From NCBI GenBank assembly GCA_964550955.1, contig CAZKAF010000001.1, forward strand, positions 99,951 through 163,950: a stretch of 64,000 nucleotides of DNA, written 5' to 3'. Source of the stretch: an uncultured Candidatus Saccharibacteria bacterium. Lineage in GTDB: Bacteria; Patescibacteriota; Minisyncoccia; Phycocordibacterales; CAIZLB01. Shown here piece by piece: positions 36,788 to 55,190 of the stretch. The notes under the pieces are model-generated. The model searched no databases. It was not told the DNA's origin and saw only the letters and a list, made by a program, of their open reading frames with translations. The translations under genes and the position numbers were made by a program. Positions within the stretch are counted from its first letter, which is position 1, and every line of letters begins with the position of its first letter.

Positions 36788-36798
36788 GATTTCTCTCA

Positions 36799-37185: not shown

Positions 37186-37198
37186 GGGGGGGGGGGGG
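37186..37198. repeat. G13 homopolymer tract in the avd/RT divergent intergenic region
   Basis: gcgggggggggggggggca, seen directly. Confidence 0.8.
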
Positions 37199-37224
37199 CA
37201 GATTCATGGTTTGTATTGTGTAAT

Positions 37225-38223: not shown

Positions 38224-38267
38224 AGCCGTTAAATTCTGGTTCCTAGATTAGTTTAGCGTCATAATGC

Positions 38268-38296
38268 TTGACAAACACATACAAATATAGTACTAT
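38268..38296 (+). promoter_or_regulatory. sigma70-type promoter
   Basis: TTGACA, 17-nt spacer, TACTAT; ends about 15 nt upstream of ATG 38312. Confidence 0.5.
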
Positions 38297-38311
38297 ATAC
38301 CTATACAAATT

Positions 38312-39055: not shown

Positions 39056-39145
39056 GATCGAGCTGCGATAAAATCTCTTTAAAATGCTTGCGCGCGATTG
39101 AACTGTCGTTGCAAAAGCAGGGGAAGAGTGATATAAAGTGAGCAC

Positions 39146-39724: not shown

Positions 39725-39863
39725 AAGTTTTTGGACAGAAGCCCTGTCGCTTCGGCGGGCGGAACTCTTCATGAATTCATAAAAAACTTTTTAGTTTTTG
39801 AAAAATGTCCTCTAATGGGCATTTTATTTTTTGTAGAAATGGCCGCGTGCTATAATCGATGGA

Positions 39864-41255
39864 ATGCAGAACAATAATTCACCCTGGTTGCAGCAATTGA
39901 AAAGAACGCGAGCCGTCGACACGCTGCTCGGGGACATGAGAACGGACATTGCCATCATCGGCGCCGGCATCGCGGGCGTTTCAACCGCATACTTCACCCT
40001 GAAGAATACTGACAAGCAGGTCTTGCTCATCGAGGCGAGCAAGGTCGCGCATGGCGCGACGGGCCACAATGCCGGGCAGATCGTCTTCGAATTCGAAAAA
40101 GAGCTTCACGCGCTTACCGAGACATACGGCCTGCAGCTTGCCGCCGATGCGGAACGGTCAGTCCGAAGCGCCTGGATGCTCATCGAGGAAATGTATCAGG
40201 ATGCCAATCTTCAAACCCCCATGTCTTCGTTTTTGGGATACAACGGGTACGCGACTGTCCCTCGAGTCATCGAAGAATTGAAAAATAACGCCCTCCGGGT
40301 CGAAGCGGGCATTCCTGTTGCCCCTGTTTACATAGCCGAGCACGCTGAAGGGCTCGACCAGATACCGCGGGCATACAAGGATTTGTACAACATTGTCCCT
40401 CATGAAGACGTCCTGTCCCTGCTTGAGACCAAGGACAAGCAGTATATCGCCGTGATGTCCGAAAGGAAGGGCTGCGTGAACAGCGCCCTGCTCGTCGAGG
40501 AAATCGTCGGCTATCTTCTTTCAAAATATGCGGGCAGGTTCGTCTTGGCCGAAGAGAGCCCTGTCAGGGAAATAGTTCTCGATCATGACTCCGGAATGCT
40601 CAAGGTGTTCAGCCATTCCGTATACGCAAAGAAAGTGGTCCTGTGCACGAACGGCTTCGAAAGATTCAAGATCACGAACCTGGTCGGAGGAAATATCGAC
40701 ACGAAGTTCCATCATATGGTCATCGGCAATGTCGGGTACATGGCAGGCTATCTTGAAAAGCTGGATCATCCTCCGATTGCCTTGCAGTACCATGACAAGG
40801 AACAGATAGATGCCGGTCGCGCGGAAGTCTCATATATGGAAAAGCCGTACATGTACCTGACAAGGAGGCCGTATGAGGTCGAGAAAAATGAAAGCCATAA
40901 CCTGGTTTGCGTGGGCGGCCCGGAACAGAACATCGAGGACACGACCTCGTATCGCAAGGAAAGCGAGATGATGGCGGAATCAATCGACCAGATCGAGCAT
41001 TTCATCCATAAGACATACGCGCATGCTCCGAAAGACAAGATCGATTTCAAGTTCAAATGGCACGGCCTGATGGGCTACACGCCGACGAACATGCGAGTCA
41101 TCGGAGAGGAACCCAAGAACGGGGTATTGATGTATAATCTGGGGTGCAACGGCATCGGCATTCTTACCTCGATTTACGGCGGCAAGAAGATATCGGAAAT
41201 ACTTCGAGGCGATGCGCTGCCGCCGTCGCTTTTTGATCCGAGGATCTCCTACTAA
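39864..41255 (+). CDS. FAD-dependent oxidoreductase (DAO/glycine-oxidase-like)
   Basis: N-terminal Rossmann DIAIIGAGIAGVSTAY; 463 aa. Confidence 0.75.
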   Translation: MQNNNSPWLQQLKRTRAVDTLLGDMRTDIAIIGAGIAGVSTAYFTLKNTDKQVLLIEASKVAHGATGHNAGQIVFEFEKELHALTETYGLQLAADAERSVRSAWMLIEEMYQDANLQTPMSSFLGYNGYATVPRVIEELKNNALRVEAGIPVAPVYIAEHAEGLDQIPRAYKDLYNIVPHEDVLSLLETKDKQYIAVMSERKGCVNSALLVEEIVGYLLSKYAGRFVLAEESPVREIVLDHDSGMLKVFSHSVYAKKVVLCTNGFERFKITNLVGGNIDTKFHHMVIGNVGYMAGYLEKLDHPPIALQYHDKEQIDAGRAEVSYMEKPYMYLTRRPYEVEKNESHNLVCVGGPEQNIEDTTSYRKESEMMAESIDQIEHFIHKTYAHAPKDKIDFKFKWHGLMGYTPTNMRVIGEEPKNGVLMYNLGCNGIGILTSIYGGKKISEILRGDALPPSLFDPRISY

Positions 41256-41258
41256 ACC

Positions 41259-41885
41259 ATGCTTGAATTATTCGTTGGAAAAATTGACGTGCTCGCTCCG
41301 CTCTTGCTCAGCTTGGGCCTTTGGGTCTATGCGTTCGTATTTTTGCTTGCCATCCTGGAATCGGCTCCCGTGCTCGGGACATTCACTCCGGGCACGCTGA
41401 TGCTCCTGTTCATAGGGTTGCTCTGCTCGCAGGGGCACATACTGGTACTGCCTGCCATCCTTTTCGCCACGCTCGGCGGCATTGCCGGAGACAGCGCGGG
41501 GTACTACCTTGGCAGATACGGCAGGAATTTCATAAAGGAAAATAAGGGCTTGCTTCGCACGGGGCATTTGGATATTGGAAAGACGTATTTTTACAAGCAT
41601 GGCGGAAAGAGCGTCTTCCTGGGCAGGTTCATCGGGCCGATTCGGCCGATTATTCCTCTGATTGCCGGCATGGTCCACATGTCATTTAGGAGATTCTTCG
41701 TCTTGAACGTCGCGAGCGCGCTGCTTTGGGCTTCGCTCTATATCGCGTGCGGCTTCCTGTTCGGCAATCATATCGAATTCATCGACTCGCTGATCTCAAA
41801 GATCGGCCTCGTCACCACTCTCATCATCGGCTGCGCCGCCATCTATTTTTTCAATAAATACAGAAAGGAGAAGGTCTTGGGATAA
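41259..41885 (+). CDS. DedA/TVP38-family membrane protein
   Basis: 208 aa, TM helices, and a GRFIGPIRPIIPLIAGM-type motif. Confidence 0.75.
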   Translation: MLELFVGKIDVLAPLLLSLGLWVYAFVFLLAILESAPVLGTFTPGTLMLLFIGLLCSQGHILVLPAILFATLGGIAGDSAGYYLGRYGRNFIKENKGLLRTGHLDIGKTYFYKHGGKSVFLGRFIGPIRPIIPLIAGMVHMSFRRFFVLNVASALLWASLYIACGFLFGNHIEFIDSLISKIGLVTTLIIGCAAIYFFNKYRKEKVLG

Positions 41886-41988
41886 GGTCCGGCCATTTCA
41901 TTCGCATGGTCATGCGGTTCACTGAGCGCTGGGTATTGGGCAAAATTCATATGCAGTTTATGCCCGCTTCATCCGCGTCAGGTAGGAT

Positions 41989-42519
41989 TTGTTCGTGCAT
42001 ATGCATGGGCGTACTCGAAACAGTCAATTTAAAATCCGTCAGTCGGGCATCGTCTCGCTGACTTTGGTCTTGTTGCTCACCGGAATCATCTCATCGGCTG
42101 TTTTTGGCCTGATTGAATCCAATACCCCGTATCTCCTTTTGAAGAGAGATATCGACATGCATCGAACTCGTTTAAGGGCGAGCGTTTCCTGTCGTGACAT
42201 GGCAATATCGCATATACATGAGAATGCGGATTTTGACGCGGTATTTTCTTTGGAAAACGTGAGGCGCGTGTTTGCTGACATTGCGCTGGCGGAAGGCAAA
42301 TCCGCCTGTTCAGTGCTCGGCATCGAAAGGATTCAGCCTGTCGACGCGTCATTGCTCGGCGACTCGGCAGTCGACCTCTCGTCCGCATACAGGTTGTTCA
42401 TTATTCGGACTTCCGGCGAAACGGCAGGGGATAGCGCAAGGCTTCATCTGGAAACTGGCGTGGCTTTCGACGAGCGGATGATGATCGTCTGGAAGCGGTC
42501 ATTGGAACTTCAGATTTAG
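41989..42519 (+). CDS. hypothetical protein with N-terminal TM helix (possible pilus-associated)
   Basis: GIVSLTLVLLLTGIISSAVF near the N-terminus; located upstream of a pilin gene. Confidence 0.4.
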   Translation: MFVHMHGRTRNSQFKIRQSGIVSLTLVLLLTGIISSAVFGLIESNTPYLLLKRDIDMHRTRLRASVSCRDMAISHIHENADFDAVFSLENVRRVFADIALAEGKSACSVLGIERIQPVDASLLGDSAVDLSSAYRLFIIRTSGETAGDSARLHLETGVAFDERMMIVWKRSLELQI

Positions 42520-42580
42520 TTTATTCCCGCATCATCCCGGTCGCGTATCATCAGCGCATTAACCAGTTAACATTTTAATT

Positions 42581-43042
42581 ATGCAAAAAAGATACATAAC
42601 AAGCGGAGGCTTCACGTTGCTTGAGGTCCTCATGGTTATCGGCATTTTGGCGATACTCGCGGGCGTCGTGCTGACCGCGGTTAATCCCGCCCGGCAGTTC
42701 AAGGTAGCGCGCGATTCGCAGAGAAATGCGAACATCGTCACCGTGCTGAACGCGATTGGCCAAAACATGACGGACCATGCCGGCAATTTCATATGCGAGG
42801 GGGTCTTGGCCGAATTGCCTGCCGCGAAGGAGGGGATGGGAAGCGATGCCGGATTTGACATCGCGCCCTGCCTGGTGCCTGACTACATATCCGCATTGCC
42901 ATATGACCCGGGCAAGGAATCCGCATACTATGTCGATGAGACTGACTATGAGACCGGATATTACATAAGCCGGGATGTCGAGGGGAGGGTGACCGTATAT
43001 GCGGACGGCGAGATTCAGCCGGATTTGAAAACCGTGCGATAG
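42581..43042 (+). CDS. type IV pilin/pseudopilin (prepilin, class III signal)
   Basis: MQKRYITSGGFTLLEVLMVIGILAILAGVVL: G/F cleavage site with Glu at +5. Confidence 0.8.
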   Translation: MQKRYITSGGFTLLEVLMVIGILAILAGVVLTAVNPARQFKVARDSQRNANIVTVLNAIGQNMTDHAGNFICEGVLAELPAAKEGMGSDAGFDIAPCLVPDYISALPYDPGKESAYYVDETDYETGYYISRDVEGRVTVYADGEIQPDLKTVR

Positions 43043-43114
43043 TCAGGGCATCGGGCTATCGCTTTCGGGGTCGCGGAATGGACAGGTGCATGGCAGTCTG
43101 AGTATACTTCTGAC

Positions 43115-43885
43115 ATGAACATTTCATCGGGTTCCGTCAAGAAAGATTTGCTCGGGATTGCCTCGAAAGAAAAAGCCTCGGTTTACGCCTGGTTTTTCAA
43201 GACTGGAAAGGGCGGGTATGGCGAAGGCGATGCATTCATCGGCGTCACCGTTCCGCAGCAGAGAGTCATCGCTAAAAAATACTCCGCCCAGTTCATGGAC
43301 CGGCATGCCGGCGAGAAGCCCGAGAAGCTGAACTCGGGCTCTTTCGCCTGGATTCAGGAGTTGCTGAACGACAAAATTCACGAATGCAGGCTGTCCGCGC
43401 TGATGATTCTCGCATACCTGTACAAGCATAAGAAAGCTGATAGGCGCCTCAAGGAATCGGCGTACAAGCTCTATCTTAAAAACTTCAAGAACATAAACAA
43501 CTGGGACTTGGTCGACTGCAGCGCGAGGGACATCGTCGGCGGCTATTTGCATGAGTTCGGGCATGGCGATGTCTTGGCAACGCTCTCTGTCTGGGCGGAT
43601 TCAAGCCACCTTTGGACTCGGCGAATCTCCGTCATCGCGACGCATTATTTCATCGGCAGGGGAGAGTTAGGGCCGACGCTTTTCATTTCGAAAAAGCTTC
43701 TCGGCGACAGGCATGATCTGATTCATAAGGCGAGCGGCTGGATGCTGAGGGAAGCGGGAAAGAAGAGCGAAAAAGCCCTTACGCGTTTCCTTGACGAGCA
43801 TCATAAGCGAATGCCTCGAACGATGCTCAGATATGCCATTGAACGGCTGTCACCCGAGCAGAAAGCGCGTTATATGAAGAGATAG
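43115..43885 (+). CDS. DNA alkylation repair enzyme (AlkD-like HEAT-repeat, PF08713-like)
   Basis: 256-aa alpha-helical repeat protein, WDLVDCSARDIVGGYL region. Confidence 0.5.
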   Translation: MNISSGSVKKDLLGIASKEKASVYAWFFKTGKGGYGEGDAFIGVTVPQQRVIAKKYSAQFMDRHAGEKPEKLNSGSFAWIQELLNDKIHECRLSALMILAYLYKHKKADRRLKESAYKLYLKNFKNINNWDLVDCSARDIVGGYLHEFGHGDVLATLSVWADSSHLWTRRISVIATHYFIGRGELGPTLFISKKLLGDRHDLIHKASGWMLREAGKKSEKALTRFLDEHHKRMPRTMLRYAIERLSPEQKARYMKR

Positions 43886-43948
43886 AGATGGGCCGTATTT
43901 TGCCGTTTCAAAGCCGCGCCTTCCGGTTTTCAAGCGATTTGCCCGCCT

Positions 43949-43978
43949 TTGACTTTTCAGCGCTTTTTTTGCTATGAT
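43949..43978 (+). promoter_or_regulatory. candidate promoter for the tRNA gene
   Basis: TTGACT, 18-nt spacer, TATGAT, about 70 nt upstream of tRNA position 1. Confidence 0.4.
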
Positions 43979-44050
43979 GGGCAAGTTCGCTGAAGTTCGA
44001 GGCCTGGTTTGGCCGTCGAATGGGCGGACACTGAAAGCAGAATAAAACAT

Positions 44051-44559
44051 TCCCCTGTAGCTCAGCGGTAGAGCAATCGACTGTGAACGTGTCCTGCCTT
44101 TGATATACTCCAAAGTATGTTGAAAAAGAGGACATATGCTGATCGTGCGCCATATATGATTGAAGCTGTCAGAAAGCGGAGAATAAAGCTTCGCAAGATG
44201 GCCAGAGAGTATAAAGGCGGCAAATGTGAGATTTGCTAAATTCGCGAAGGCATAACGCAGCTTCCGGTACGAAAGTCCGGTCGCAAATAAGGTGAATTGC
44301 TGGAAGTCCTGATTCTCATGTCAGGATAATCAGCAGCCAAGCTCGGCAAGAAATTGCCTTGAAGGTTCAGAGACTATCCCTTCGGGGAGTAGTCGGATGC
44401 AGGTAGCAATGCAAAGCGTTCGACGAAGCGCCTTACGTCTAAACATGTATAAGTGCAGCAATGCAAAATTCATGCATGACGATGATATAGTCCACACCGT
44501 CAGTAATGATGGATAAACGTGTAATCGATTGGTCGTAGGTTCGATCCCTACCGGGGGAG
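44051..44559 (+). tRNA. tRNA gene split by a group I intron in the anticodon loop (anticodon UGU/Thr or GUU/Asn depending on exact junction)
   Basis: 5' exon: TCCCCTG-TA-GCTC-AGCGGTA-GAGC-A-ATCGA-CT... 3' exon: ...TGTAA-TCGAT-TGGTC-GTAGG-TTCGATC-CCTAC-CGGGGGA-G. The acceptor stem pairs across 435 nt. Confidence 0.7.
44083..44519 (+). ncRNA. group I self-splicing intron (no ORF)
   Basis: R element TTCAGAGACTAT (44366-77) and S element GATGATATAGTCC (44481-93) supply the P7 pairing GACTA/TAGTC. A G precedes the candidate 3' splice sites, a U precedes the 5' splice sites. Confidence 0.65.
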
Positions 44560-44561
44560 CA
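44542..44561 (+). repeat. attL: 20-bp core (tRNA 3' end)
   Basis: cgatccctaccgggggagca, identical to 52691-52710. Confidence 0.7.
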
Positions 44562-46137
44562 TTGAAGGATGAGAAGGCACGAAAGTGCCTTTTTGTCTTT
44601 GTGGCATAAGGGTATTATCTGGTTCGTAGCACTCTGAAAGCCTCGGCATCCATTCCACGAAATACTTAGCCAATAAAGTTAAATCCGACTTTATTTCTAG
44701 GCTGTTTTGCCAGAAGTTCGTAAACAATTGGTTGAACAAAACTCGCTTGTCGTCATTCTCTGCCATCTCATAGATTGCATCCGCGTTAAACGCCAATTCA
44801 TGGACAATGAGAGCTAGATTCTGGTACTCATCAGACTGATTATTAATACGAACCAGGGCGCTTTGGAAATTCTCTTCCTCAGCTGAAATATGGGCTATTT
44901 GGCGCTCACAGAATTCAAGCGGAACTGTACCTTCGAGCTTAGCCATATAAATTTTATCCTTCTTGGTTCGTATCATACCTAAGTGAGTGTTTAGACGATG
45001 AATTTCATTCTCGCGTTCTCCAATTTTCTCTTTGAACTCGCAACAAATAACATCCTCAATCCATTTGAGTAGGTCTTTGTTCTTGGGTGCAATTTTCTTG
45101 AATATGGGTCTAAGTTGCTCCTCAACCTTTTCTTCGCGGATATAGGTCTTTTTAGGGCATTTACGAGAGGTCAGGTGGTTATTGCAATGTCCGTACCAAT
45201 GACTCTTTTGCTTCTCCCAAGTCAAAGATTTGCCGCAGCCTTCACAGACAATCATTGTCTTGAATAGCGGGTTGTGAATATTGAATCGCGGCTGATTTAT
45301 CTTTCGCTTTAATATCTTCTGCACTTTATCAAATAGGTCTCTTCCAATTATTGGCTCATGCTTACCGCTGTATTTCTGGCTTTTCCATAAGAAAGAACCG
45401 TAATAGAAAGGGTCTTGAATTAAGACATGCAATCTCTTATGAAGAACTCTTTTTCCGCTTCTGGCGCGCAGACCACGACTGTAAAGCTCCTCTTCTAATT
45501 TTGTTAAAGAGTAGTTTCCAGTGGCGTATAAATCAAACATGTCGCGCATAAGCGGGGCAACACCCTTATCAATAACATGTATCTTCTTTCCCTTGTCTCC
45601 TATGGTCATATAGCCCAAAGGTGGTTTTGTTGGCAGCCAACCTTCAGCTATCTTTTCAACTTGCCCTTTCTTAACTTCTTCAGAAAGGTTAGCGATATAT
45701 TTCTTAGCTAATACGATTTCAATATCCCATCTGAACTTTTCATCAGACTTGGCATTTTTATGAATTACTAAGTTCTGTTTTACAAAGTGGATATATCTGT
45801 TTTCGTCTTGCTCAAGCCAATCATTAATAACAACAGCTTCCTTAAGATTTCTTGTAAGCCTGTCCACTTTCTCACAGAGTAAGTGAGATATATTATTCTT
45901 TACAAGAAATTCCATCATTTCCCCAAAGACCTTTCTTTGTTTCGAGCCGCTGGCGCTTTCAGCAATACAGAATTCTTTAATAAGGTTGAATCCCTTTTGG
46001 TCAGAACGTTCCTTTAGTAATTTACTTTGAGCGGGAAGGGAATAACCTGTTTCCTCCTGTTCTCTGGTAGAGACACGGCAGTACATGGCTGCGCGATTAT
46101 TCGCCCCAAGTGATGGGGCTTGTTTCTGGGTCTTCAT
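44548..46137 (-). CDS. large serine recombinase (integrase)
   Basis: N-terminal resolvase catalytic domain (AAMYCRVSTREQ). Recombinase domain. Zinc ribbon CEGCGK...CPKK. Coiled-coil. The last 4 codons overlap the tRNA 3' end. Confidence 0.85.
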   Translation of the reverse strand: MKTQKQAPSLGANNRAAMYCRVSTREQEETGYSLPAQSKLLKERSDQKGFNLIKEFCIAESASGSKQRKVFGEMMEFLVKNNISHLLCEKVDRLTRNLKEAVVINDWLEQDENRYIHFVKQNLVIHKNAKSDEKFRWDIEIVLAKKYIANLSEEVKKGQVEKIAEGWLPTKPPLGYMTIGDKGKKIHVIDKGVAPLMRDMFDLYATGNYSLTKLEEELYSRGLRARSGKRVLHKRLHVLIQDPFYYGSFLWKSQKYSGKHEPIIGRDLFDKVQKILKRKINQPRFNIHNPLFKTMIVCEGCGKSLTWEKQKSHWYGHCNNHLTSRKCPKKTYIREEKVEEQLRPIFKKIAPKNKDLLKWIEDVICCEFKEKIGERENEIHRLNTHLGMIRTKKDKIYMAKLEGTVPLEFCERQIAHISAEEENFQSALVRINNQSDEYQNLALIVHELAFNADAIYEMAENDDKRVLFNQLFTNFWQNSLEIKSDLTLLAKYFVEWMPRLSECYEPDNTLMPQRQKGTFVPSHPSMLPR

Positions 46138-46254
46138 GGTTGTGTTTGCAACCTTGGTTTGTCAGTGATATTCTTCGGGTATCACTTAACAACGAAAGTT
46201 GCTTTTGTGTGTTATCTAAAAGACCTCTTGCTTAGCCGCGGGGGTCTTTTAGTT

Positions 46255-46476
46255 TTAATTAAATAGCGTTAGTACAAGAATCAATACAGTAAAAGTGAGA
46301 ATCCATCCAAGTTTTCCGTATTTCTTTTCCCATTGGATATTTTCTTTGACAGCGTGCAACATTATTTCTTGTTCTGACATTTTGTAAACTTCCTTATAGT
46401 TTTCTACTTTGAACTTGGCTGAAATGGTAGCTTCCAAATCTTCGCGACTAGTTTTTTCTTCTTTTGTGATTGCCAT
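46255..46476 (-). CDS. small protein with C-terminal TM helix
   Basis: 73-aa ORF on the island. Confidence 0.35.
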   Translation of the reverse strand: MAITKEEKTSREDLEATISAKFKVENYKEVYKMSEQEIMLHAVKENIQWEKKYGKLGWILTFTVLILVLTLFN

Positions 46477-46701
46477 TGCTTTTCAATTAGGTTGATAACA
46501 AGGCAAACGAAAAAGCGACAGCCGTTGCCTTGCAACCCATACTGAAAGCACAAAGGCTCGCAATCTGGAAGGTCAGCTGCCGCTTTCTAGTCCAGATTGG
46601 TTGGACCACAGAAAAACAGCGCTGCCTTTGCGCGTAAATATTCAATATGGGTTGCTCTTACATTCTACCATACTGAATGAGGGTGGCAACTTGTGGCAAG
46701 G

Positions 46702-46875
46702 TCAGCCATCGTCTGATTTCTCCACTTCAGCATTAAAATAAGCCTCAAGTATCGTGGTCAATAGCTTAATCATGGAGGTCTCCTCAATAGCAGCAATCAT
46801 CTTAAGATTTTGGTGCAGCTTCTTGGGTATCCTCACAAGCACAGTCTTTTTGTTTTGATGTAAATTTGTATACAT
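46702..46875 (-). CDS. 57-aa ribbon-helix-helix (CopG/Arc-like) DNA-binding protein (not in ORF track)
   Basis: MYTNLHQNKKTVLVRIPKKLHQNLKMIAAIEETSMIKLLTTILEAYFNAEVEKSDDG. A beta-strand plus two helices, with the KxxLxRIPxxLHxxLK pattern. Confidence 0.4.
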   Translation of the reverse strand: MYTNLHQNKKTVLVRIPKKLHQNLKMIAAIEETSMIKLLTTILEAYFNAEVEKSDDG

Positions 46876-47555
46876 TTTGTTTTAGTCGCCCGACTTTTAC
46901 CTTCTAACCCCCTCCTGCGGGATGCAGTTGCTGGGTTTCTTTCTGTATCAGACGGATGCCTTTAGTGCAGCAGCTACCCTTAAGTATTGCTCATTTGTGC
47001 AATCACTTTTTCGAACTCTGCCTAAAGATGAAATGCTGCGGCGCTCTTCATTGAACTGGGCGAGAAGTCGTACACTCGTTTTCCCAGTTTTTCGCAAGAA
47101 CGTCTCAACACTCCTTGTTGTTTTTAACGCGCTCCCTCCTCAGTCGCGCCATTGTGTAAGTGATGAGTTTTACTTCTGCCCACACTTAATAGAAGGTTTC
47201 GTCTGAATTGTTCAAGGCTAAATTAATAGCCCTAAAGCCCCTTGGTGGTAAAGTCCCAAACACTAAGAGGCTTTAGGAGTATCAATCTTCTTGTTCTTTT
47301 GAAGTATCACAAATAAACCCAGATAAAACTGAGCCACTGATTGGGCTATTGTATTAAGTTCATCATCAGCAATGAATACACCTGCCTTTGCATTGATTTC
47401 TTTGAACTTCTGTATTTGTTCGGGTGTTAGCTTCACTCATTGAGAATATCAGTAACTCTTATACACTCTACATACACCCTCCCAAGTCTATATTCAGAAA
47501 ATAACCCTTATTTCAGGCTGTCATCAATTACTTATTAACATGTACAAGGAAAAAT

Positions 47556-48191
47556 CTAGATTAAAGTTATGTCTAAATCAATCGTGTAGCCTTCGCCTCG
47601 AATACCTCTTATTGGCTTTGCTCCAGTATTAAGGAGTTTTATTTTTTCCATTACTTTATTTGTCTTTGTGATTAGCTCGCCGACTCGAATTCCATGATTG
47701 CCGAATGCAGACTGAATATCCTTTGTTTTAAGTGGTCCGTCAGTGTTGGCGAATAAAGTAAGTAATCTATAACGTTGAGATTCTTTGCTTACAGTACCTA
47801 TCTTCGTATCATCCATATAAATAGCCCCCTCAGAGTCTATTTTTATCTTAGTCTTTTTTGTACCAGTATATTGAGCGGGGTCAAAAGTCTTTGTATTAAC
47901 ATCGACAGCGTAACTTTCTGCCAAACCAACTTCATCAATTAAAGAAATGTCATCTGTCTTGATTACAAAGCATCTCTTCTGAGTGCTGCCTTTTTCTTTT
48001 TCATAACAGCCATAACCATGCTTAAAATCCTCAACAATTCCTAGCTGTTTGAAATGAAGTAGAATTTCGTACACATCTTGTCTTGTAAGGTCTTTTTGCA
48101 GCTCAGATATGGAAATACCCAGAGTCTTGCCACCAAACTGCTGGTTCTGCTGTTGAAGATAACTGAGGATTGTTCGCTCGTCTGATTTCAT
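47556..48191 (-). CDS. hypothetical protein with N-terminal winged-helix-like region
   Basis: 211 aa. Start codon overlaps the track start of the divergent Xis-like gene. Confidence 0.45.
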   Translation of the reverse strand: MKSDERTILSYLQQQNQQFGGKTLGISISELQKDLTRQDVYEILLHFKQLGIVEDFKHGYGCYEKEKGSTQKRCFVIKTDDISLIDEVGLAESYAVDVNTKTFDPAQYTGTKKTKIKIDSEGAIYMDDTKIGTVSKESQRYRLLTLFANTDGPLKTKDIQSAFGNHGIRVGELITKTNKVMEKIKLLNTGAKPIRGIRGEGYTIDLDITLI

Positions 48192-48231
48192 GTATATTTA
48201 CAGTATAACTTGCCACAAGTTGCCAAACAAC

Positions 48232-48414
48232 ATGCCTTCAAAAACACCCCAATTTTATACCCTGAAAGAGGCTTCTGAATTACTCAAAGTAAGTGTAAGG
48301 AGTCTATACCGTTATATTCAGACCAAAAAGTTGGTGGCAACAAAGGTTGGCTATTGGCGAATAAGCAAAAATGACTTAGACAGTTTTATTAAGGATGGCT
48401 CAAACATTAAATAA
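48232..48414 (+). CDS. excisionase-family HTH DNA-binding protein (MerR-superfamily Xis-like)
   Basis: YTLKEASELLKVSVRSLYRYIQTKKLVATKVGYWRISKNDLDSFI. The ATG at 48232 is preferred over the track start 48190. Confidence 0.55.
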   Translation: MPSKTPQFYTLKEASELLKVSVRSLYRYIQTKKLVATKVGYWRISKNDLDSFIKDGSNIK

Positions 48415-50266
48415 AATGAAACTGTATCTTAAATCATTGGAGCTAACAAATTACCGTACTTTCGGTAGTGAAACCCTAGATATAGATAAAGAGATAACTC
48501 TTCTTGTCGGGGCTAATGAATCAGGCAAGACTAATCTTCTGGATGCACTAGAGCTGCTTGATGTTGAGAAGACATTTAATGATTCGGATACAAAAATTAA
48601 CTCTGAATACTCCGCAAAGAATTACGAGCCATATCTAAGTTATAGAATGGAGCTGACTGAAGAAATGCAAACTAAGCTTAAAAGGTATGCAAGATACTTT
48701 GAAAAGAATAACGAGGTTTTTATAAATCGTAATGGGAGCGATATTGACGATATAACAGTAGATACGGTAAATGACGTAAGCTATGATTTCCCAATTGCAT
48801 ATAGGAACGTATCAGATGTAGAACAGAAACTCATTAGCAAGAACGGCATTGTGGCTCTTTCCCCGCAGAGTTACACACTTACTTCCATTAATTATTTCAA
48901 GAACTCAAAACTTTTCAAAGACGGAAAGGTTATAAAGATTGAAGATAAAGAAAGAAACAGGCTCCTAACTGCAAAAATAAAAGAAATTGTCTTGGAAAAT
49001 ATGCCATCTGTGTTTCTCTGGAAGTATTCAGATGCCTACTATATTCCCAAAGATGTACCGATTGATTTTTATAATCAGAAGGACAAATTTCAGTCTGTAA
49101 TAAATCTCTTTAAGTTGGGGGACATAGATGAAGATAAGATTGTTACACACCTAACGAATAGAGACAGTGTATACATAATCAATTTTTTGAATACTTTGTC
49201 TAAGAAAGTATCACTTGTGCTGAATAACACTTGGAAACAGAGGAAAAATATAAAGCTCAATCTTCATTTTAAAGAAACTTGGATAGAGATTCTGGTAGAG
49301 GAGAAGGACTATCAAATTGACCCAAATAAAAGAAGTGAAGGGCTACAGTGGTATCTTTCGTTCCTTATCAATTTTCGTTCAAAACTACAGACTCTCAAAA
49401 ATAATATAATCTTGTTTGACCAGCCTGGAGACAAGCTTCATCCTGGCGGACAAAGAGACCTTATGGAAAGATTTGAAGAGATGGCTGAATTTAATCAGAT
49501 TGTTTATTCAACTCATACGCCGTTTACAATAAATAAGGATTATCCAGAAAGAGTTAGGCTTATAACTAGACCCGAGGATGACAGTAAGATTATCAACAGG
49601 CTAAGTAACAGAGAGATTTTTAAGGATGAGTTATTGAGAAGCTCACTTGGTTTAAGTTTGTCTGATGTATCTCCTGTGGCTGAGAAAAATATTCTTGTTG
49701 AAGGTTTGTTGGATAAGCTCATATTAACGGATTTTATAGAGAAATTGAAAAAGTTTAAGTTCAGTATCAAGCTGAACCAGTCTGTTATCATTCCAGCGCA
49801 CAGCGCTTCGAAGATTCTTTATTATGCTAATTTTATTAAATCAAACGGATTAGACGTTTTAGCGATATTTGATGGAGACGCAGCAGGGAAGGAGGCAATT
49901 GTAGAAAATAAAAAGAAGAAGGTTTTGGAAAGTAGGGAAATCTTACTAGTGTCTTTAGGCAAAGGGACTGCACAAACTATAGAAGACATTATCCCGATAA
50001 AAATTATTACTGATTCTATTAATGAAATAGGAGTGCTTATTGATAAAAATAAATTTACTCCAATTGCATTAACGACAACACCAGTAATGCCACTTATAAA
50101 GGGTCATTTCGCAAAACTTGGAATGGATTTTTCAGAATCAGATAAACATCTGTTTTCAATTAAGGTATTGGAAAAGTTTAAGAAGATGCCCGTTAAGGAA
50201 ACGGATTTAAAGGGTAGTCTGTCAGGACTCTATGAATTAGTTAAAGAAATAAAAAAGAAGTTATAG
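48395..50266 (+). CDS. OLD-family nuclease: N-terminal ABC-type ATPase + C-terminal TOPRIM domain
   Basis: P-loop LLVGANESGKTNLL. Walker B/D-loop ILFDQPGDKLHP. H-loop YSTHTP. TOPRIM ILVEGLLDK...IFDGDAAGKEA. Confidence 0.7.
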   Translation: MAQTLNKMKLYLKSLELTNYRTFGSETLDIDKEITLLVGANESGKTNLLDALELLDVEKTFNDSDTKINSEYSAKNYEPYLSYRMELTEEMQTKLKRYARYFEKNNEVFINRNGSDIDDITVDTVNDVSYDFPIAYRNVSDVEQKLISKNGIVALSPQSYTLTSINYFKNSKLFKDGKVIKIEDKERNRLLTAKIKEIVLENMPSVFLWKYSDAYYIPKDVPIDFYNQKDKFQSVINLFKLGDIDEDKIVTHLTNRDSVYIINFLNTLSKKVSLVLNNTWKQRKNIKLNLHFKETWIEILVEEKDYQIDPNKRSEGLQWYLSFLINFRSKLQTLKNNIILFDQPGDKLHPGGQRDLMERFEEMAEFNQIVYSTHTPFTINKDYPERVRLITRPEDDSKIINRLSNREIFKDELLRSSLGLSLSDVSPVAEKNILVEGLLDKLILTDFIEKLKKFKFSIKLNQSVIIPAHSASKILYYANFIKSNGLDVLAIFDGDAAGKEAIVENKKKKVLESREILLVSLGKGTAQTIEDIIPIKIITDSINEIGVLIDKNKFTPIALTTTPVMPLIKGHFAKLGMDFSESDKHLFSIKVLEKFKKMPVKETDLKGSLSGLYELVKEIKKKL

Positions 50267-50566
50267 ATTTAACTTATGTTTTAGAGAGGAAAATATCGCA
50301 CCTACCAAAAAGCCAGCCAGGACACCAATCATGAAAAGTACCACTCCTGCGGCGTATGGATTATTCACTAATTCATTGAATTTTTCAGGATTACTTTTGT
50401 TCATTTCTTGGTAAGCGGCAACAACGATGACACCCCAAAAAGCACTGAAGCCTAAATATTCAAAATCGCTTATTGTCTTTCTGGAACCGTTGCCTTTTCT
50501 GTAACCCCACACCAAGCCAAAGCCAGCCAGTATGATTAGAAAGTAAGTATATGTATCTATGTCCAT
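50261..50566 (-). CDS. small membrane protein (coordinates approximate)
   Basis: Three TM helices beginning MDIDTYTYFLIILAGFGL. The track ORF extends to 50695, but the upstream part looks non-coding. Confidence 0.3.
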   Translation of the reverse strand: MDIDTYTYFLIILAGFGLVWGYRKGNGSRKTISDFEYLGFSAFWGVIVVAAYQEMNKSNPEKFNELVNNPYAAGVVLFMIGVLAGFLVGAIFSSLKHKLNL

Positions 50567-50747
50567 AGTGGCACAAATACTACATTTCTTGCGGCGAAAA
50601 GCAACCTCACGGTGCATATTAAAGTTGAGTCTTGAAAGGGTGTAAAGAGTGCTTTGTGGTACAATTATGCTAACATCAGTACACCCTATGACCATCTCAA
50701 ATAATCAATGTTTGCTCACAAATTTTGTCCTTGTTCCAGTCAATTCC

Positions 50748-51350
50748 ATGGAGCCTGCAACTTTCTTTACTGATAAAATAAAGGCAAAGTTTGTGGAGAT
50801 TTATGGAGATTCCAGCAAGCCGACAATAACTCAATTTCCAGAGCTGTTGGTAATTTTTGATGCTGTAAATCAAATTAATGTTTCTATAGAAAGAGGAAAG
50901 GCTGTGATTACTGACAGTAAGGTAACCAATTTCAATCAACGAGACCTAAATAAGTTATCTCAGTTTGCACACTCTATATTTAATGTTTTAGAGTTAGGGA
51001 AGTTAAAAGCTTATGGCTTTAATACAATTTGCTTAATGGATTTAGAAGCGGGAACTAATTCTTCGAAGTTGTTAAGCGATAGCTTTTTAAAGCTTGATAA
51101 ATTTACTTCAAGTGAAGGGGAAATAATTGGCGGAGGTGTAAGATTAATTTATAAAAATGCCTCGTCTGTGAGGAATGACCTAAGAATTGACCCATTCTTT
51201 GCTGAAGGTTCCCTTGATGAGACAGAGACGATAAGAGTGAATCAGAATTCAAATTTTGATAAGCAGGTCTTGCCAGATTTATCAGAGTTACAAGGTTGTA
51301 TTTCAGATATTTACAATGCATTGCCAGTTTTAATTGGAAAGCTTATATGA
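50748..51350 (+). CDS. hypothetical protein (island cargo, gene 1 of 3)
   Basis: The ATG at 50748 is in frame with the track GTG start 50649. The stop overlaps the next start (ATGA). Confidence 0.45.
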   Translation: MEPATFFTDKIKAKFVEIYGDSSKPTITQFPELLVIFDAVNQINVSIERGKAVITDSKVTNFNQRDLNKLSQFAHSIFNVLELGKLKAYGFNTICLMDLEAGTNSSKLLSDSFLKLDKFTSSEGEIIGGGVRLIYKNASSVRNDLRIDPFFAEGSLDETETIRVNQNSNFDKQVLPDLSELQGCISDIYNALPVLIGKLI

Positions 51351-51775
51351 TTGAACATAATTTAATTAAAATCGTGACAAGCGATAATATTTCTGTGACT
51401 ACTCAGCCTATGGGTTTGGGGGTTGCCTTGTCAGACACATACATTATCGATACCTCAAAGTGTATTGATAATGTAACCCAATTTCAATATGTAGGCTCTG
51501 TTTCTGCCCTTACGACTAGTTTTACAATCACGCATAGAAACGACTCTGGTTTCAGTAATTCTGATTTAAAGAGATTAAACAAGATTGTATACAACTTTCA
51601 GGATACATTGCCTCATACAGTTATATTTGAAAAAGTTAAGAAATATGAACATCGTTTTAACTTAAAGTCTGAGGATTTTCACACAAAGTGGGAATTAGGA
51701 GAATTACCTGCGACCCCTGAATTTTATGACTGGAATAACTCCTACAAGACTTTAAATTTAAATGTCAGTAAGTAA
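51347..51775 (+). CDS. hypothetical protein (island cargo, gene 2 of 3)
   Basis: Translationally coupled; overlaps the next gene by 14 nt. Confidence 0.45.
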   Translation: MIEHNLIKIVTSDNISVTTQPMGLGVALSDTYIIDTSKCIDNVTQFQYVGSVSALTTSFTITHRNDSGFSNSDLKRLNKIVYNFQDTLPHTVIFEKVKKYEHRFNLKSEDFHTKWELGELPATPEFYDWNNSYKTLNLNVSK

Positions 51776-52244
51776 ACGTGTACAGTATATAAAAGATACT
51801 ATTAAAAGTTATAAAGATATTTTTGAATATCCAGAGGTGTCTTTAAATTCAGTAAAGACTAGCAATAATAGTATCTACTTTCCTCGGGAAGTTGATTTTG
51901 ATAAGGCTGAGGGTGCCGAATTGAAAGGGGGAGTCGGTTTCCTCTCTGTTTTTGAGGATTATGATGAAACCAATAAAAAAGTCAAAGGATATATTTATCG
52001 ATTTTCATCTGACGAATATACGTACCTAGTAGAACATAAAAAATCAAAAGAATGTGTAGATACATATTTTAATTTTCATTACCAGGATGACGATAAGCAT
52101 GAACCTCACGTTTCATTTCTCCACAATTCAATTCGATACAATTCTGCAAATATTCAACTGGATGAATTTCTTGATTTCGTTAAGAGAACCTTTATGGGTC
52201 CACGAAAAGGAATGAATTATAGAGTTTGGCATTCGAGGAATTAA
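51762..52244 (+). CDS. hypothetical protein (island cargo, gene 3 of 3)
   Basis: 160 aa; no family recognised. Confidence 0.45.
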   Translation: MSVSKRVQYIKDTIKSYKDIFEYPEVSLNSVKTSNNSIYFPREVDFDKAEGAELKGGVGFLSVFEDYDETNKKVKGYIYRFSSDEYTYLVEHKKSKECVDTYFNFHYQDDDKHEPHVSFLHNSIRYNSANIQLDEFLDFVKRTFMGPRKGMNYRVWHSRN

Positions 52245-52690
52245 TTCTGGGCTTTTTCCTCCTCTAAGAGCGGGTATCCTACCGTCTATCTAAAATAACG
52301 TTTAGGAAACTGCCAGTACCTAAATTTGAAAACCCTGAAATCCGCCATGCGTTGCTCGAAGGGTATGTACTTTTCTATCATATTTAATGATACGGTCTAT
52401 ACCCATGCTAATACTTTTGACACGCTCGCTCCATAATACTTACCAATCCCCAGGATTGCATGCGTATGTATCAGTATGACTATGTATATGTAAGGTTACT
52501 TAGCTGACTATCGCCAATAAAGTCCTTATTTGCTGTATCGAAACAGAAGGATGGGGGAAAACCTCATCCCATTTCATGGTTCGTATAACATCCCTCCATG
52601 CGAGCAGAAAAAGAAAGGGCGCCAGCAAAGCTGGTGCTTTTTCTTTTTCCTGTGACCTGGGTCAGCGATCGAATTTCGACGAAGGAGGGG

Positions 52691-52710
52691 CGATCCCTAC
52701 CGGGGGAGCA
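52691..52710 (+). repeat. attR: 20-bp direct repeat of the tRNA 3' end
   Basis: cgatccctaccgggggagca. Confidence 0.7.
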
Positions 52711-52791
52711 AAATAATACAATGCCAGACTGACCCGGATTTTGAGCTAAGACGAAAGTTTACTTAAGCCCGGGTCAGAGTATACTGACTAG

Positions 52792-53325
52792 ATGAATAAA
52801 TTACGTATAGCAGCGTTGCTCACGGGTGTTATCCTGGCGGGAGGTTTCTTTGCATTGAACTCGCATGTCTATGACGAAAAGCAGGCGGACACTACAGACA
52901 ATTACCAAGATGCCGAATACCTGATCGAAGGCGAGCACATGAAAATTGGAAGCAATGTCCATTATTTCGGCAATGAGCTCAAGGCCGACCTTGATGGTGA
53001 TGGTCGGGATGATGTCGTCTTTCTCATTACTCAAGAGGGCGGCGGTTCGGGCACCTTTTTCTATGCGGTAGCTGCGCTTAATACTGATCGTGGCTACATC
53101 GGCTCGGCCGGGTTTTTTTTGGGTGATCGGATAGCGCCGCAGAGCACGAATATAAGCCAAAATCCACGGCACAAGCATGTCATTGTGGTGAACTATGCCG
53201 ATCGCGCGGCAGGTGAGCCGATGACCGCGCAACCCTCGGTGGGCAAGAGCGTTTATTTGAAACTTGATCCTATGAGTATGCAATGGGGCATTGTCGAGCC
53301 AGATTTTGAAGGCGAATCTCGCTAG
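52792..53325 (+). CDS. secreted hypothetical protein (DLDGDGRDD Ca-binding/FG-GAP-like segment)
   Basis: N-terminal signal/TM, 177 aa. Confidence 0.5.
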   Translation: MNKLRIAALLTGVILAGGFFALNSHVYDEKQADTTDNYQDAEYLIEGEHMKIGSNVHYFGNELKADLDGDGRDDVVFLITQEGGGSGTFFYAVAALNTDRGYIGSAGFFLGDRIAPQSTNISQNPRHKHVIVVNYADRAAGEPMTAQPSVGKSVYLKLDPMSMQWGIVEPDFEGESR

Positions 53326-53422
53326 AACTTTAACTAGGCAAGGCCTAGACGGATAGATTAAGCATATATATTTCCAAGGTTCCGATATCCCGTACCATGT
53401 CGAGTGGGTATTGACTAAAATA

Positions 53423-53508
53423 AAGAAACATGGTATTAATATGCCAGGTTCTTCATGTTATATGGGTAGCGGCTTTGAAAGGAAGCCCTGGTGTCCCAAA
53501 CCTTACAC
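53423..53508 (+). promoter_or_regulatory. conserved intergenic element, copy 1 (degenerate palindrome + 35-nt motif ending 18 nt before ATG)
   Basis: aagaaacatggtattaatatgccaggttctt ... gcggctttgaaaggaagccctggtgtcccaaaccttacac. Confidence 0.5.
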
Positions 53509-53526
53509 CTAAAGGATAGTTATTAT

Positions 53527-54051
53527 ATGCACATTGTTATGTTGGTCATGTTTGCCGTTGTGTCGCTCACGTTGCTGGGCGTGGTGGTTCTGATTGCAAA
53601 GGAAAGGCTTCGGGATCTCGGACATTTCATAAACGTCTGCGTCTTGGCCACGTTCGTCTGTGGAAACCTGATTTCCAATGCGGTCTTCTGGACTCTTCAC
53701 GTGGATTCGCTCTTGGTGCCGCTCAAAGAGCAGTTTCGAATGGCATCTGCGACGGAACCGAGGCATCGGTACGCTGCAAGTGACAGGGGATCAACTCTTG
53801 ATTACGGCGGCAGATTGGACCGCATCGTCCAAGAGAGGGACGCTCTTACCAAAGAGATGGGCCTGATCGGGATTGGGGTAAGCTGGCACACCGACGGGGA
53901 CTCAGTCAGTTCCGTTGGAATTTACCTCCATGCCGGATTCCTTGCTATCTTTTCAGTGCCAGTCATCCTTCTCGCGTTGCTGGTCTGGCTCACCAAGGGG
54001 TCGCGCCAAGCGTATTGGCGCAGAAAAGATGCGCGCCGCCCGCTGGCCTGA
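53527..54051 (+). CDS. hypothetical membrane protein
   Basis: The ATG at 53527 is chosen because the track GTG start 53491 lies inside the conserved upstream element. Confidence 0.5.
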   Translation: MHIVMLVMFAVVSLTLLGVVVLIAKERLRDLGHFINVCVLATFVCGNLISNAVFWTLHVDSLLVPLKEQFRMASATEPRHRYAASDRGSTLDYGGRLDRIVQERDALTKEMGLIGIGVSWHTDGDSVSSVGIYLHAGFLAIFSVPVILLALLVWLTKGSRQAYWRRKDARRPLA

Positions 54052-54059
54052 CAATACCG

Positions 54060-54112
54060 CCTCCTGGCGACAAGAAAAACCTCTTGTCGTGACAGGGCAG
54101 GCGGTTTTTTTT
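54060..54112 (+). terminator. rho-independent terminator
   Basis: CCGCCTCC..CGACAAGA-aaaacc-TCTTGTCG..GGCAGGCGG followed by T8. Confidence 0.6.
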
Positions 54113-54285
54113 ATTTATATTCATCAAGGCTCTGACATCTCTCAGCCCTCTGAGCAAAGCGGGCAAGATGTAATATCCCTCCGGCGTTACCGTCAGCATA
54201 GAATCTCGTTTTACATCCCTGAGTGGATAGTATTATAATATAGCCGAGAACCAATATAAGTATAATAATAAGTATAATAAAAAAT

Positions 54286-54588
54286 ATGGAATCAGGACCA
54301 AAACAACCGATAGAGTCAAATGAAGGAGTTTCTCAAAAGGAACAAATTCAAACAGTGCTGTCAGCGCTGAATGGGGCAAAATCCATGCCCGCGGGGAGCG
54401 AGCGCGACGCGTTCGTCCAAGAACAGTTTGATGCATTGGCTGGAGTCATTCCGCCTTCGATAAATAGGGCAATGGATGTGGGCGGCAGGAAAATCTGGCA
54501 ATTTATTGCACAAGGCGAAGGCTTCGATCTTTCAGTAAACGTGGTGGCCACGCAAGAATCAATAGTGGTTAATTGCGTGATGGATTAA
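54286..54588 (+). CDS. hypothetical protein
   Basis: 100-aa ORF. Confidence 0.4.
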   Translation: MESGPKQPIESNEGVSQKEQIQTVLSALNGAKSMPAGSERDAFVQEQFDALAGVIPPSINRAMDVGGRKIWQFIAQGEGFDLSVNVVATQESIVVNCVMD

Positions 54589-54657
54589 TTTGTTTAATCT
54601 TGTTCATTGCGTGCCGATGACGCGTCGGCGGGCCATTATCACATAATTCACAAATAT

Positions 54658-55080
54658 ATGTCTGAAACACAAATGTTTCCAGCGATACGATTCAATGACC
54701 AGAAATGCCGGGAGGCCATGGAGTTTTATAAAGATTGTTTTGGCGGGGAGCTTCAATTCATGACCGTCAAGGATAGTCCGATGGCGGCTGACATGCCGGA
54801 AGATGCGCATGGCCTTGTCATGCACTCGACTCTTAGGAACAATGGCTGGACGCTCGTCGGTTCCGACATGATGAGGGATCGCGCCGTAAGCGGCGACCAA
54901 GTCGGCGTCATGGTTGATTTTAAAAATGAATCTGAATTGCGAGCGGCCTTCGACAAGCTTGCGGTTGGCGGTGAAGTATTCATGCCGGTCGAGGACGCGT
55001 TCTGGGGAGCATTTTTCGGCGTACTGACCGACAAGTACGGAGTAGAATGGTCGCTTAACTGCACGAAGGTCCAGGGCTAG
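54658..55080 (+). CDS. VOC-family (glyoxalase/PhnB-like) protein
   Basis: FYKDCFGGEL...VMHSTLRNNGWTLVGSD...FWGAFFGVLTDKYGVEWSLNC. Confidence 0.65.
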   Translation: MSETQMFPAIRFNDQKCREAMEFYKDCFGGELQFMTVKDSPMAADMPEDAHGLVMHSTLRNNGWTLVGSDMMRDRAVSGDQVGVMVDFKNESELRAAFDKLAVGGEVFMPVEDAFWGAFFGVLTDKYGVEWSLNCTKVQG

Positions 55081-55108
55081 GGAGGGTTGATTGCATGGAC
55101 AAAACTAA

Positions 55109-55190
55109 AAGAACGTGGTATTAATACCACGTTCTTTTGCATAAAGGGTAACGGTCTTGAAAGGAGGCCTCGGTGTCCCGAACAATACAC
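55109..55190 (+). promoter_or_regulatory. conserved intergenic element, copy 2 (28-bp perfect palindrome + 35-nt motif)
   Basis: AAGAACGTGGTATTAATACCACGTTCTT (55109-36), 19-nt gap, then CTTGAAAGGAGGCCTCGGTGTCCCGAACAATACAC (55156-90), then 18 nt, then ATG. Confidence 0.55.

Follow-up and report, generated by a model that had tools for sequence, protein, structure and literature searches.

The staphylococcal cassette chromosome (SCC) is inserted by large serine recombinases of the Ccr type (CcrAB/CcrC) at the 3' end of rlmH/orfX without inactivating the gene, is bounded by repeats of about 15-20 bp and forms tandem composites. In general, tRNA genes are the classic landing sites of tyrosine integrases. 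Serine integrases have been described as inserting within genes with overlaps of about 2 bp (PMC5704250), and a computational study found t(m)RNA genes to be used by 14 of 297 serine-integrase islands versus 44.5% for tyrosine integrases, a use previously unreported for the serine family and presented as calls in need of experimental proof (Mageeney et al., 2020; PMC7192596). Here we describe an 8.1-kb segment (positions 44562-52710) at a tRNA-Asn gene in a 64,000-nt stretch, hereafter the window, of contig CAZKAF010000001.1 from an uncultured Candidatus Saccharibacteria bacterium (GCA_964550955.1). The segment is very likely a mobile island that integrated site-specifically by means of the large serine recombinase (LSR) encoded at its tRNA-proximal end. 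In the literature on serine recombinases and tRNA genes in Patescibacteria, we found no description of this LSR family.

The locus resembles the tRNA islands of tyrosine integrases (P4-like elements, Islander-type islands and tRNA-inserted integrative mobilizable elements) in its use of the 3' part of a tRNA gene with a T-loop sublocation, its tRNA-restoring repeats of 16-20 bp, its integrase gene beside the left attachment site (attL), its foreign composition and defense cargo, and tandem accretion at one site. However, the recombinase here belongs to the unrelated serine family, and the end of its open reading frame (ORF) overlaps both the attachment (att) core and the tRNA terminator on the opposite strand. 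SCC is the nearest serine-recombinase analogue, sharing a housekeeping-gene 3' end as target, repeats that are unusually long for LSRs, tandem islands and a lack of self-transfer genes, but differing in that here the target is a tRNA gene, a single recombinase lies at the very end of the element and the host belongs to Patescibacteria. CcrB and CcrA were indeed among the best NCBIfam equivalog matches of the window LSR; since these scores fall far under the Ccr cut-offs (CcrB, 82 bits versus 900), and with a target other than rlmH, assignment to Ccr was rejected. Phage serine integrases (A118, TP901-1, Bxb1, phiC31) have the same domains, namely a catalytic N-terminal domain, a recombinase domain and a zinc ribbon, and would share the unidirectional attP x attB reaction, whereas they insert in protein genes or intergenic DNA with about 2 bp of identity and very short repeats.

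Direct repeats at an intron-split tRNA-Asn gene

A first-pass annotation, made from the letters of the window, had proposed an AT-rich integrative island between 20-bp direct repeats at a tRNA 3' end. The features that define these boundaries are as follows.

44051..44084, plus strand: tRNA-Asn(GUU) 5' exon, positions 1-35 (cloverleaf when joined to the 3' exon)
44085..44521, plus strand: group I intron of 437 nt with a degenerate HNH homing-endonuclease remnant (Rfam RF00028)
44522..44559, plus strand: tRNA-Asn 3' exon, U36 to discriminator G73 (cloverleaf when joined)
44542..44561, plus strand: attL core, the tRNA-proximal repeat copy (exact 20-mer, 0/100 shuffles)
52691..52710, plus strand: attR core, the displaced copy of the tRNA 3' end (exact 20-mer)

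The window contains two exact copies of the 20-mer CGATCCCTACCGGGGGAGCA, at the positions given in the first-pass annotation (44542-44561 and 52691-52710). Both copies are on the plus strand, and no third copy was found in the window even at up to five mismatches. Since none of 100 shuffles contained a match, a chance origin of the 20-mer is excluded. The copies enclose 8,149 bp with a GC content of 0.375, compared to 0.521 in the remaining window, and the GC profile drops from about 0.52 to 0.32-0.45 between them, in keeping with the earlier remark that the segment is poorer in GC than its flanks (37.5% versus 52%). This foreign composition is accompanied by cargo that includes an OLD-family gene and toxin-antitoxin-like genes. 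An independent assembly, Logan contig L001 (SRR16797977), matched the window without a single mismatch over the 11,550 bases of 43587-55136; the source metagenomes are SRR16797976, SRR16797977 and SRR16797981.

ARAGORN reported no tRNA anywhere in the window, and the repeat became readable as a tRNA 3' end only once the 437-nt intron was removed. Rfam RF00028 (group I intron) matched 44195-44513 at 67.6 bits, above its gathering score of 50, and joining exons 44051-44084 and 44522-44559 gave a 72-nt canonical cloverleaf, tRNA-Asn(GUU), split at 35/36 and without an encoded CCA. Two splice registers fit the group I rule (5' exon ending in U, intron ending in G), yielding either Asn(GUU) or Thr(UGU). 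We consider the Asn register correct since 57-62 of 72 nt are identical to the intron-less tRNA-Asn(GUU) genes that lie beside related recombinases, and since the spliced tRNA has U1-A72 and G73, which we take to be tRNA-Asn identity features. The left repeat corresponds to T-loop C56 through discriminator G73 plus two nucleotides (CA), so that an exact 20-bp copy completes tRNA-Asn. The tRNA 3' end that had been reported at the left repeat is therefore real, but it belongs to an intron-split gene missed by ARAGORN. Upstream of the identity block at attR, the DNA is the purine-rich GAAGGAGGGG, not a T-stem; the element-side arm beside the block is purine-rich both in the window (GGAGGGG) and in a related island, L102 (GCGAGGG).

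For Patescibacteria, tRNA-Asn genes interrupted at 35/36 by a group I intron have been reported, with the same Asn/Thr splice ambiguity and occasional HNH homing endonucleases; that paper makes no mention of recombinases or islands (Nakagawa et al., 2026; PMC13011429). The window tRNA matches this description in its RF00028 hit, its U35 and terminal intron G, its Asn(GUU) anticodon and its escape from ARAGORN, and therefore the intron is of a kind already known.

Two further observations concern the intron. Its HNH ORF survives only as a remnant (...GGKCEIC-stop, then ...EGITQLPVRKSG) from which the HNH core is deleted, while the orthologous intron in a related metagenome-assembled genome (MAG), L005 (L005 9942-10510), is ~170 nt longer and has an intact HNH ORF; it looks as if the endonuclease was lost after the intron became fixed. 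In addition, the independent contig L003 (Logan SRR16797981), which carries the left-flank gene, ends exactly at window position 44084 (...GACTGT), the last base of the 5' exon. A branch of the assembly graph at 35/36, e.g., from coexisting intron-less and intron-bearing alleles, would produce such an end.

The large serine recombinase and its relatives

Directly at attL are two features on opposite strands.

44548..46137, minus strand: large serine recombinase (serine integrase), 529 aa (Pfam, PHROGs, PDB, alignment)
44565..44600, plus strand: hairpin and T-run, an apparent intrinsic terminator (RNAfold; antisense within the last ~17 LSR codons)

The 529-aa recombinase named in the first-pass annotation has the resolvase catalytic, recombinase and zinc-ribbon domains of a serine integrase (Pfam Resolvase, 1.3e-19; Recombinase, 4e-14; Zn_ribbon_recom, 1e-7), matches the PHROG 95 integrase at 7e-70, and in the PDB matches the A118 integrase C-terminal domain (4KIS; residues 184-467, 4e-9) and the TP901-1 catalytic domain. 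The catalytic motif Y-x-R-V-S-x-x-x-Q is present as YCRVSTREQ; R21, S23 and Q27 are invariant across 20 homologs, and D92, R93 and R96 as well as the zinc-ribbon cysteines C298, C301, C318 and C327 are invariant in the alignment. In agreement with the earlier claim that the gene ends over the tRNA acceptor, its last codons, ATG CTC CCC CGG TAG (MLPR-stop), sit inside the left repeat. No tyrosine integrase was found among the island ORFs with Pfam. An identical LSR is on record on a 696-kb NCBI contig.

RNAfold assigned -22 kcal/mol to 44560-44605, where a hairpin followed by TTTTTGTCTTT lies 5 nt past the tRNA end, antisense to LSR codons ~513-525 in the conserved tail QKGTFVPSHP. A consensus terminator scan did not list this hairpin (44574-44600), which was seen by folding. 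Equivalent hairpins are found in three related loci, within the LSR 3' coding end in L100 and L102 and in the spacer in L085. In the window, L100 and L102, hairpin and T-run lie 5-15 nt past the tRNA end, fold at -21 to -22 kcal/mol and are antisense to the conserved LSR tail ...TFV.SHP..L(R/P)(G/R). Since the hairpin is encoded antisense in this conserved tail, the last ~20 LSR codons appear to have three roles at once, encoding the protein tail while also providing the new tRNA end and the terminator of the tRNA.

Comparison of the recombinase with known proteins, as the first-pass annotation had suggested, returned ~1,500 homologs at E<=1e-20, with NCBI names that include Nomurabacteria, Yanofskybacteria, Wildermuthbacteria and Minisyncoccia. 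The best match of the window's left-flank protein (64%) is in a Candidatus Paceibacterota MAG, and these names and this match together place the window in a Patescibacteria (CPR) genome. The DNA context was followed for nine of them, eight from the homolog search and one distant IMG/VR relative (38% identity).

L085: intact tRNA-Asn(GTT) on the opposite strand, LSR stop about 54 nt short of the tRNA; no repeat found
L087: a 27-nt tRNA 3' fragment only at the LSR 3' end
L088: a ~12-nt tRNA 3' fragment; two LSR genes in the same orientation (5924-7549 and 15193-16452), 7.6 kb apart
L089: tRNA-Asn(GTT) with ~12-nt overlap; 16-bp repeat TGCTCGGGAGGTAGGG bounding 10.9 kb; HpaII restriction-modification (R-M) genes behind an HTH_17 gene
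L090: tRNA-Asn(GTT) with ~12-nt overlap; no far repeat of at least 10 bp within 10 kb
L097 (IMGVR_UViG_2711768769_000001): LSR of 38% identity, its tail running into a tRNA-like T-arm at the contig end
L100: tRNA-Asn(GTT) with ~12-nt overlap; no far repeat of at least 10 bp within 10 kb
L102: tRNA-Asn(GTT) with ~12-nt overlap; 19-bp repeat GCTCCGCGGGTAGGACTCG bounding 7.4 kb
L103: no tRNA at the LSR 3' end; LSR with an extended C-terminal tail

Related LSRs thus stand at tRNA-Asn in five loci from other Patescibacteria (L085, L089, L090, L100 and L102), where recombinases of 45-57% identity abut an intact tRNA-Asn(GTT) on the opposite strand, and the stop codon overlaps the tRNA 3' end by ~12 nt in four of the five. 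Rather than the same segment without repeats, an outcome that the first-pass annotation had held would speak against an island, L089 and L102 carry two independent islands that repeat the same logic at the same tRNA. The L102 island has ~0.40 GC in a host of ~0.60 GC and carries Mrr and DpnI-like genes behind an HTH_17 gene. The identity block starts at the same T-loop nucleotide (C56) in the window and L102, and ends 1-2 nt beyond the discriminator in all three repeat-bearing islands (the window, L089 and L102). At L086, no far repeat was found. In L088, the first LSR abuts a tRNA-end fragment only, and GmrSD, an EcoRI-type methylase and helix-turn-helix (HTH) genes lie between the two LSR genes; this arrangement suggests islands stacked in tandem at a single tRNA, which successive integrations into a restored site would be expected to produce.

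The tRNA-derived tail extends across the family. Among the 120 closest LSR homologs, 88 have C-terminal peptides resembling reverse-translated tRNA 3' ends: 69 end in x-L-[R/P/G]-[G/R...]-stop, a tail that, at the loci for which DNA was obtained, corresponds by reverse translation to ...GGAG(C)CA of the tRNA-Asn acceptor end, and a further 19 continue into DSNP, DSNL, GSNL or GIEP, as would fit a T-arm read in the same way. In about 17 of the 120, the tRNA-derived tail is replaced by a conserved C-terminal extension of ~30 aa (LLAWKDTLRT..W...FPFPSVSL.QI..LL). Carriers include P0021, P0074, P0080 and P0088, and the sole locus examined, L103, has a TrwB-like coupling-protein gene and IS66 and no adjoining tRNA; the extension-bearing LSRs may form a sub-clade with a different target.

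At the distant end of the family, the L097 provirus encodes Zot and a G2P-type rolling-circle Rep and is inovirus-like; filamentous prophages, and not defense islands alone, seem to use LSRs of the wider clade. Scans with the single LSR found only two loci in metagenome contigs, the query peptides being poorly conserved, and no match in viral contigs, where a scan with the LSR alignment found two distant relatives. Viral-contig matches to a degenerate att core were considered as attP sites and rejected, since most were phage-encoded tRNA-Asn genes.

Five of the related LSR/tRNA-Asn islands contain a LOOT RNA, an orphan Rfam motif (RF03000, 73-83 bits), each directly upstream of a cargo operon (L087 6890-7007, L088 4359-4484, L089 3242-3366, L090 7462-7584 and L100 8644-8761). 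The RNA is absent from L102 and from the window island, in which no Rfam family was found even at E<=1. This RNA could be part of the mobile-element family or one of its regulators.

Probable integration at tRNA-Asn and the alternatives

Exact repeats, an intact LSR at the junction, foreign composition with OLD cargo, an architecture that recurs across the family and an island-free syntenic relative (L005) together make integration by the LSR the best explanation of window 44562-52710, and the first-pass proposal of a tRNA-targeting integrative island holds. As we picture it, the circular element would have carried attP at the 3' end of its LSR gene, holding the exact last 18 nt of tRNA-Asn (C56-G73) plus 2 nt; the reconstructed attP (52646-52710 joined to 44562-44605) would read ...CGACGAAGGAGGGGCGATCCCTACCGGGGGAGCATTGAAGGATGAG... 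and the reconstructed attB (tRNA-Asn 3' exon plus 52711 onward) ...GGTCGTAGGTTCGATCCCTACCGGGGGAGCAAAATAATACAATGCC.... The LSR, whose catalysis we infer together with current competence for excision and a route of transfer, would have recombined attP with the matching sequence in the chromosomal tRNA-Asn gene. The element would then have supplied both a tRNA 3' end and a hairpin terminator, each antisense to the last LSR codons, while the original tRNA 3' end would have moved 8.1 kb away as attR. The tRNA-Asn would stay functional, with the group I intron upstream of the att site self-splicing. The crossover was probably near the T-loop edge (C56-A58 end) of the identity block, the most economical guess since the 5' edge at C56 is shared and the tRNA must be restored 3' of it. 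So construed, the island would be a member of a Patescibacteria-wide family of LSR elements specialized on tRNA-Asn that shuttles defense cargo, here an HTH-controlled OLD gene and a possible toxin-antitoxin pair and elsewhere R-M systems, Mrr and GmrSD.

The first-pass annotation had also called for a comparison with empty sites in related genomes. L005, a Candidatus Paceibacterota MAG, is collinear with window 31249-43879 and again with 54636-54944 (87% amino-acid identity), and has the same intron-split tRNA-Asn gene, with both exons and the intron, but no recombinase and no island; its tRNA is followed directly by a hairpin terminator and then by 1.08 kb of unrelated DNA. This comparison supports insertion of the 8.1-kb segment, although several points weigh against such a history. 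L005 differs from the window over the first ~1-2 kb past the tRNA and also lacks window 52711-54635, so that its empty site is one of synteny and not exact at the nucleotide level; an island-free relative with the same tRNA was thus obtained, but the exact allele, with the tRNA joined to 52711 onward, was not found. The island is present on each of the three contigs with the right-flank protein, and exact-protein look-ups of both flanking genes revealed no empty allele in the same species, giving only island-bearing or truncated contigs. Two of the related loci, L090 and L100, are without a far repeat of the kind sought, and the window island yielded neither a recombination directionality factor nor a transfer function. 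Finally, an identity block of 16-20 bp is atypical for LSRs, in which crossover identity is typically 2 bp, with the repeats of Ccr/SCC being similar.

Two observations on the right flank stand apart from this argument. Window 52711-54635, which encodes 177-aa and 186-aa proteins at host-like GC, has no counterpart in L005, where 10554-11638 differs; evidently, the DNA 3' of tRNA-Asn is a variable spot even apart from the LSR island. Homologs of the 177-aa protein (P0122 and P0123) were tried as markers of empty sites and rejected, as these proteins are non-syntenic members of a large paralogous family.

It is possible, though doubtful, that the island was acquired site-specifically but is now immobile, with an LSR that is inactive or kept for another role. 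Every contig recovered for the species carries the island, with no empty-site allele found, and no directionality factor was identified. However, these contigs number only three to four, which makes missing empty sites weak evidence, and recent acquisition is indicated by repeats identical at 20/20 positions, by a full-length LSR whose catalytic residues are conserved and by the strong GC contrast. The same repeats and recombinase bear on the idea of a decayed prophage at tRNA-Asn, for example an inovirus-like one that lost its structural and replication genes, which we regard as improbable. This origin would fit the L097 provirus with Zot and G2P-type Rep, edged by an LSR of 38% identity that reads into a tRNA-like T-arm, and the Arc-like repressor and excisionase-family HTH protein of the window island. 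Yet long decay is disfavored by the perfect state of the two repeats and an intact LSR; Pfam and PHROGs scans of the island ORFs found no capsid, terminase, Zot, Rep or lysis gene, in agreement with the first-pass statement that capsid and terminase genes are missing; and the closest relatives (L089, L102 and L088) are similarly small, with R-M or other restriction cargo and no phage genes.

Still further down the scale, and highly improbable, is an origin of the repeats in a tyrosine-integrase event or in the chance duplication of a tRNA fragment, with the LSR as mere cargo. Prior frequencies favor it, as tRNA sites are used by 44.5% of tyrosine-integrase islands versus 4.9% of serine-integrase islands (PMC7192596), and long gene-restoring repeats are a hallmark of tyrosine integrases (PMC5704250). 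Against these general expectations, the island has no tyrosine recombinase, the LSR stop lies within the core here and within the tRNA-Asn 3' end in four further independent loci, tRNA-derived LSR C-termini occur family-wide, and the shuffles exclude a chance 20-mer.

With integration by the LSR as the preferred account, the island itself is of a common type, and the intron of its target tRNA is already published. What is unusual, and was not flagged in the first-pass annotation, is that the integrase at this tRNA 3' end is of the serine and not the tyrosine family. A large LSR clade that uses the tRNA-Asn 3' end, with long gene-restoring repeats and an ORF overlapping both att core and terminator, is apparently undescribed. 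We lean, with some reserve, toward the broader interpretation that a clade of serine integrases in Patescibacteria converged on the tyrosine strategy, i.e., the T-loop-to-acceptor end of tRNA-Asn as target, a gene-restoring block of 16-20 bp, and integrase end codons that double as the tRNA end and often as its terminator. If true, this would be the first well-supported, family-wide use of tRNA genes by serine integrases, and these elements would be a main vehicle of defense-gene exchange among ultra-small Patescibacteria. Confirmation would mean that tRNA targeting and gene restoration evolved independently in the serine family, and that a vehicle for OLD, R-M, Mrr and GmrSD systems operates in a phylum whose mobilome is poorly known. 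It would also provide compact, cofactor-independent integrases with a natural, highly conserved attB; as tRNA-Asn is present in nearly every bacterium, these might serve as tools. Intron-split tRNAs, moreover, conceal such islands from tRNA-anchored island finders.

Cargo and other island genes

Between the LSR gene and attR, the island contains the following genes.

46255..46476, minus strand: 73-aa hypothetical protein with a C-terminal transmembrane segment, upstream of the LSR (gene call also in L001)
46487-46645, minus strand: small 52-aa ORF upstream of the LSR
46702..46875, minus strand: Arc-like/ribbon-helix-helix (RHH)-like putative repressor, 57 aa (PHROG Arc-like repressor, 1e-5; weak Pfam HicB and RHH_10)
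47556..48191, minus strand: 211-aa protein, divergent from the HTH-OLD operon (ORF)
48190..48414, plus strand: HTH_17 excisionase-family DNA-binding protein, 74 aa (Pfam HTH_17, 4e-14; PADLOC mad1)
48395..50266, plus strand: OLD-family ATPase and TOPRIM nuclease, 623 aa, candidate anti-phage cargo (Pfam, PADLOC, PDB)
50261..50695, minus strand: small membrane protein, 101-144 aa (gene calls, no family match)
50649..51350, plus strand: 233-aa protein (ORF)
51296..51775, plus strand: 142-159-aa protein with a C-terminus that is TumA-antitoxin-like and PDC-M44A-like (NCBIfam, PADLOC)
51762..52244, plus strand: 160-aa protein overlapping the preceding gene (ORF, no family match)

Of the families expected in an integrative conjugative or mobilizable element, relaxase, type IV secretion system and conjugation families were not found among the island ORFs with Pfam, NCBIfam or PHROGs. 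The 73-aa ORF had no family match in Pfam, NCBIfam or PHROGs, and the 211-aa protein none in these or in PADLOC or the PDB. The RHH protein of the first-pass annotation corresponds to the 57-aa Arc/RHH-like ORF, for which weak matches in PHROGs and Pfam suggest a possible repressor.

The Xis-like HTH gene likewise reported is present, and its product does have an excisionase-family HTH_17 domain (TIGR01764, 36.8 bits, over the cut-off). Its resemblance to Xis is at the domain level, however, and it may be a regulator of the cargo operon rather than a directionality factor, since the same small HTH gene opens the cargo or defense operon in L089 and L102, the two related islands checked for it. 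In the window, the HTH gene overlaps at its 3' end with the beginning of the OLD gene, whose 623-aa product combines an ABC-type ATPase with a C-terminal TOPRIM domain (AAA_15, 6.5e-20; OLD-like_TOPRIM, 2.9e-7; PADLOC Old, 1.7e-24; PDB 6P74, an OLD-family endonuclease). P2 Old and Class 1 OLD nucleases are alike in this arrangement of N-terminal ATPase and C-terminal TOPRIM and in being encoded by a single gene on an integrated element, but they differ in that sequence similarity is low and that here an overlapping HTH_17 gene precedes. The suggestion of defense-type cargo is thus supported by the OLD nuclease, a candidate with a putative anti-phage role.

The 233-aa and 160-aa proteins at the right end of the island could not be assigned in Pfam, NCBIfam, PHROGs or PADLOC, and the 142-159-aa protein had weak C-terminal matches, both under the cut-off, to NCBIfam TumA at 2.7e-6 and PADLOC PDC-M44A at 1.2e-6. 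The overlapping genes at 51296-52244 may form a toxin-antitoxin or defense pair, in which the 160-aa protein would be a possible toxin.

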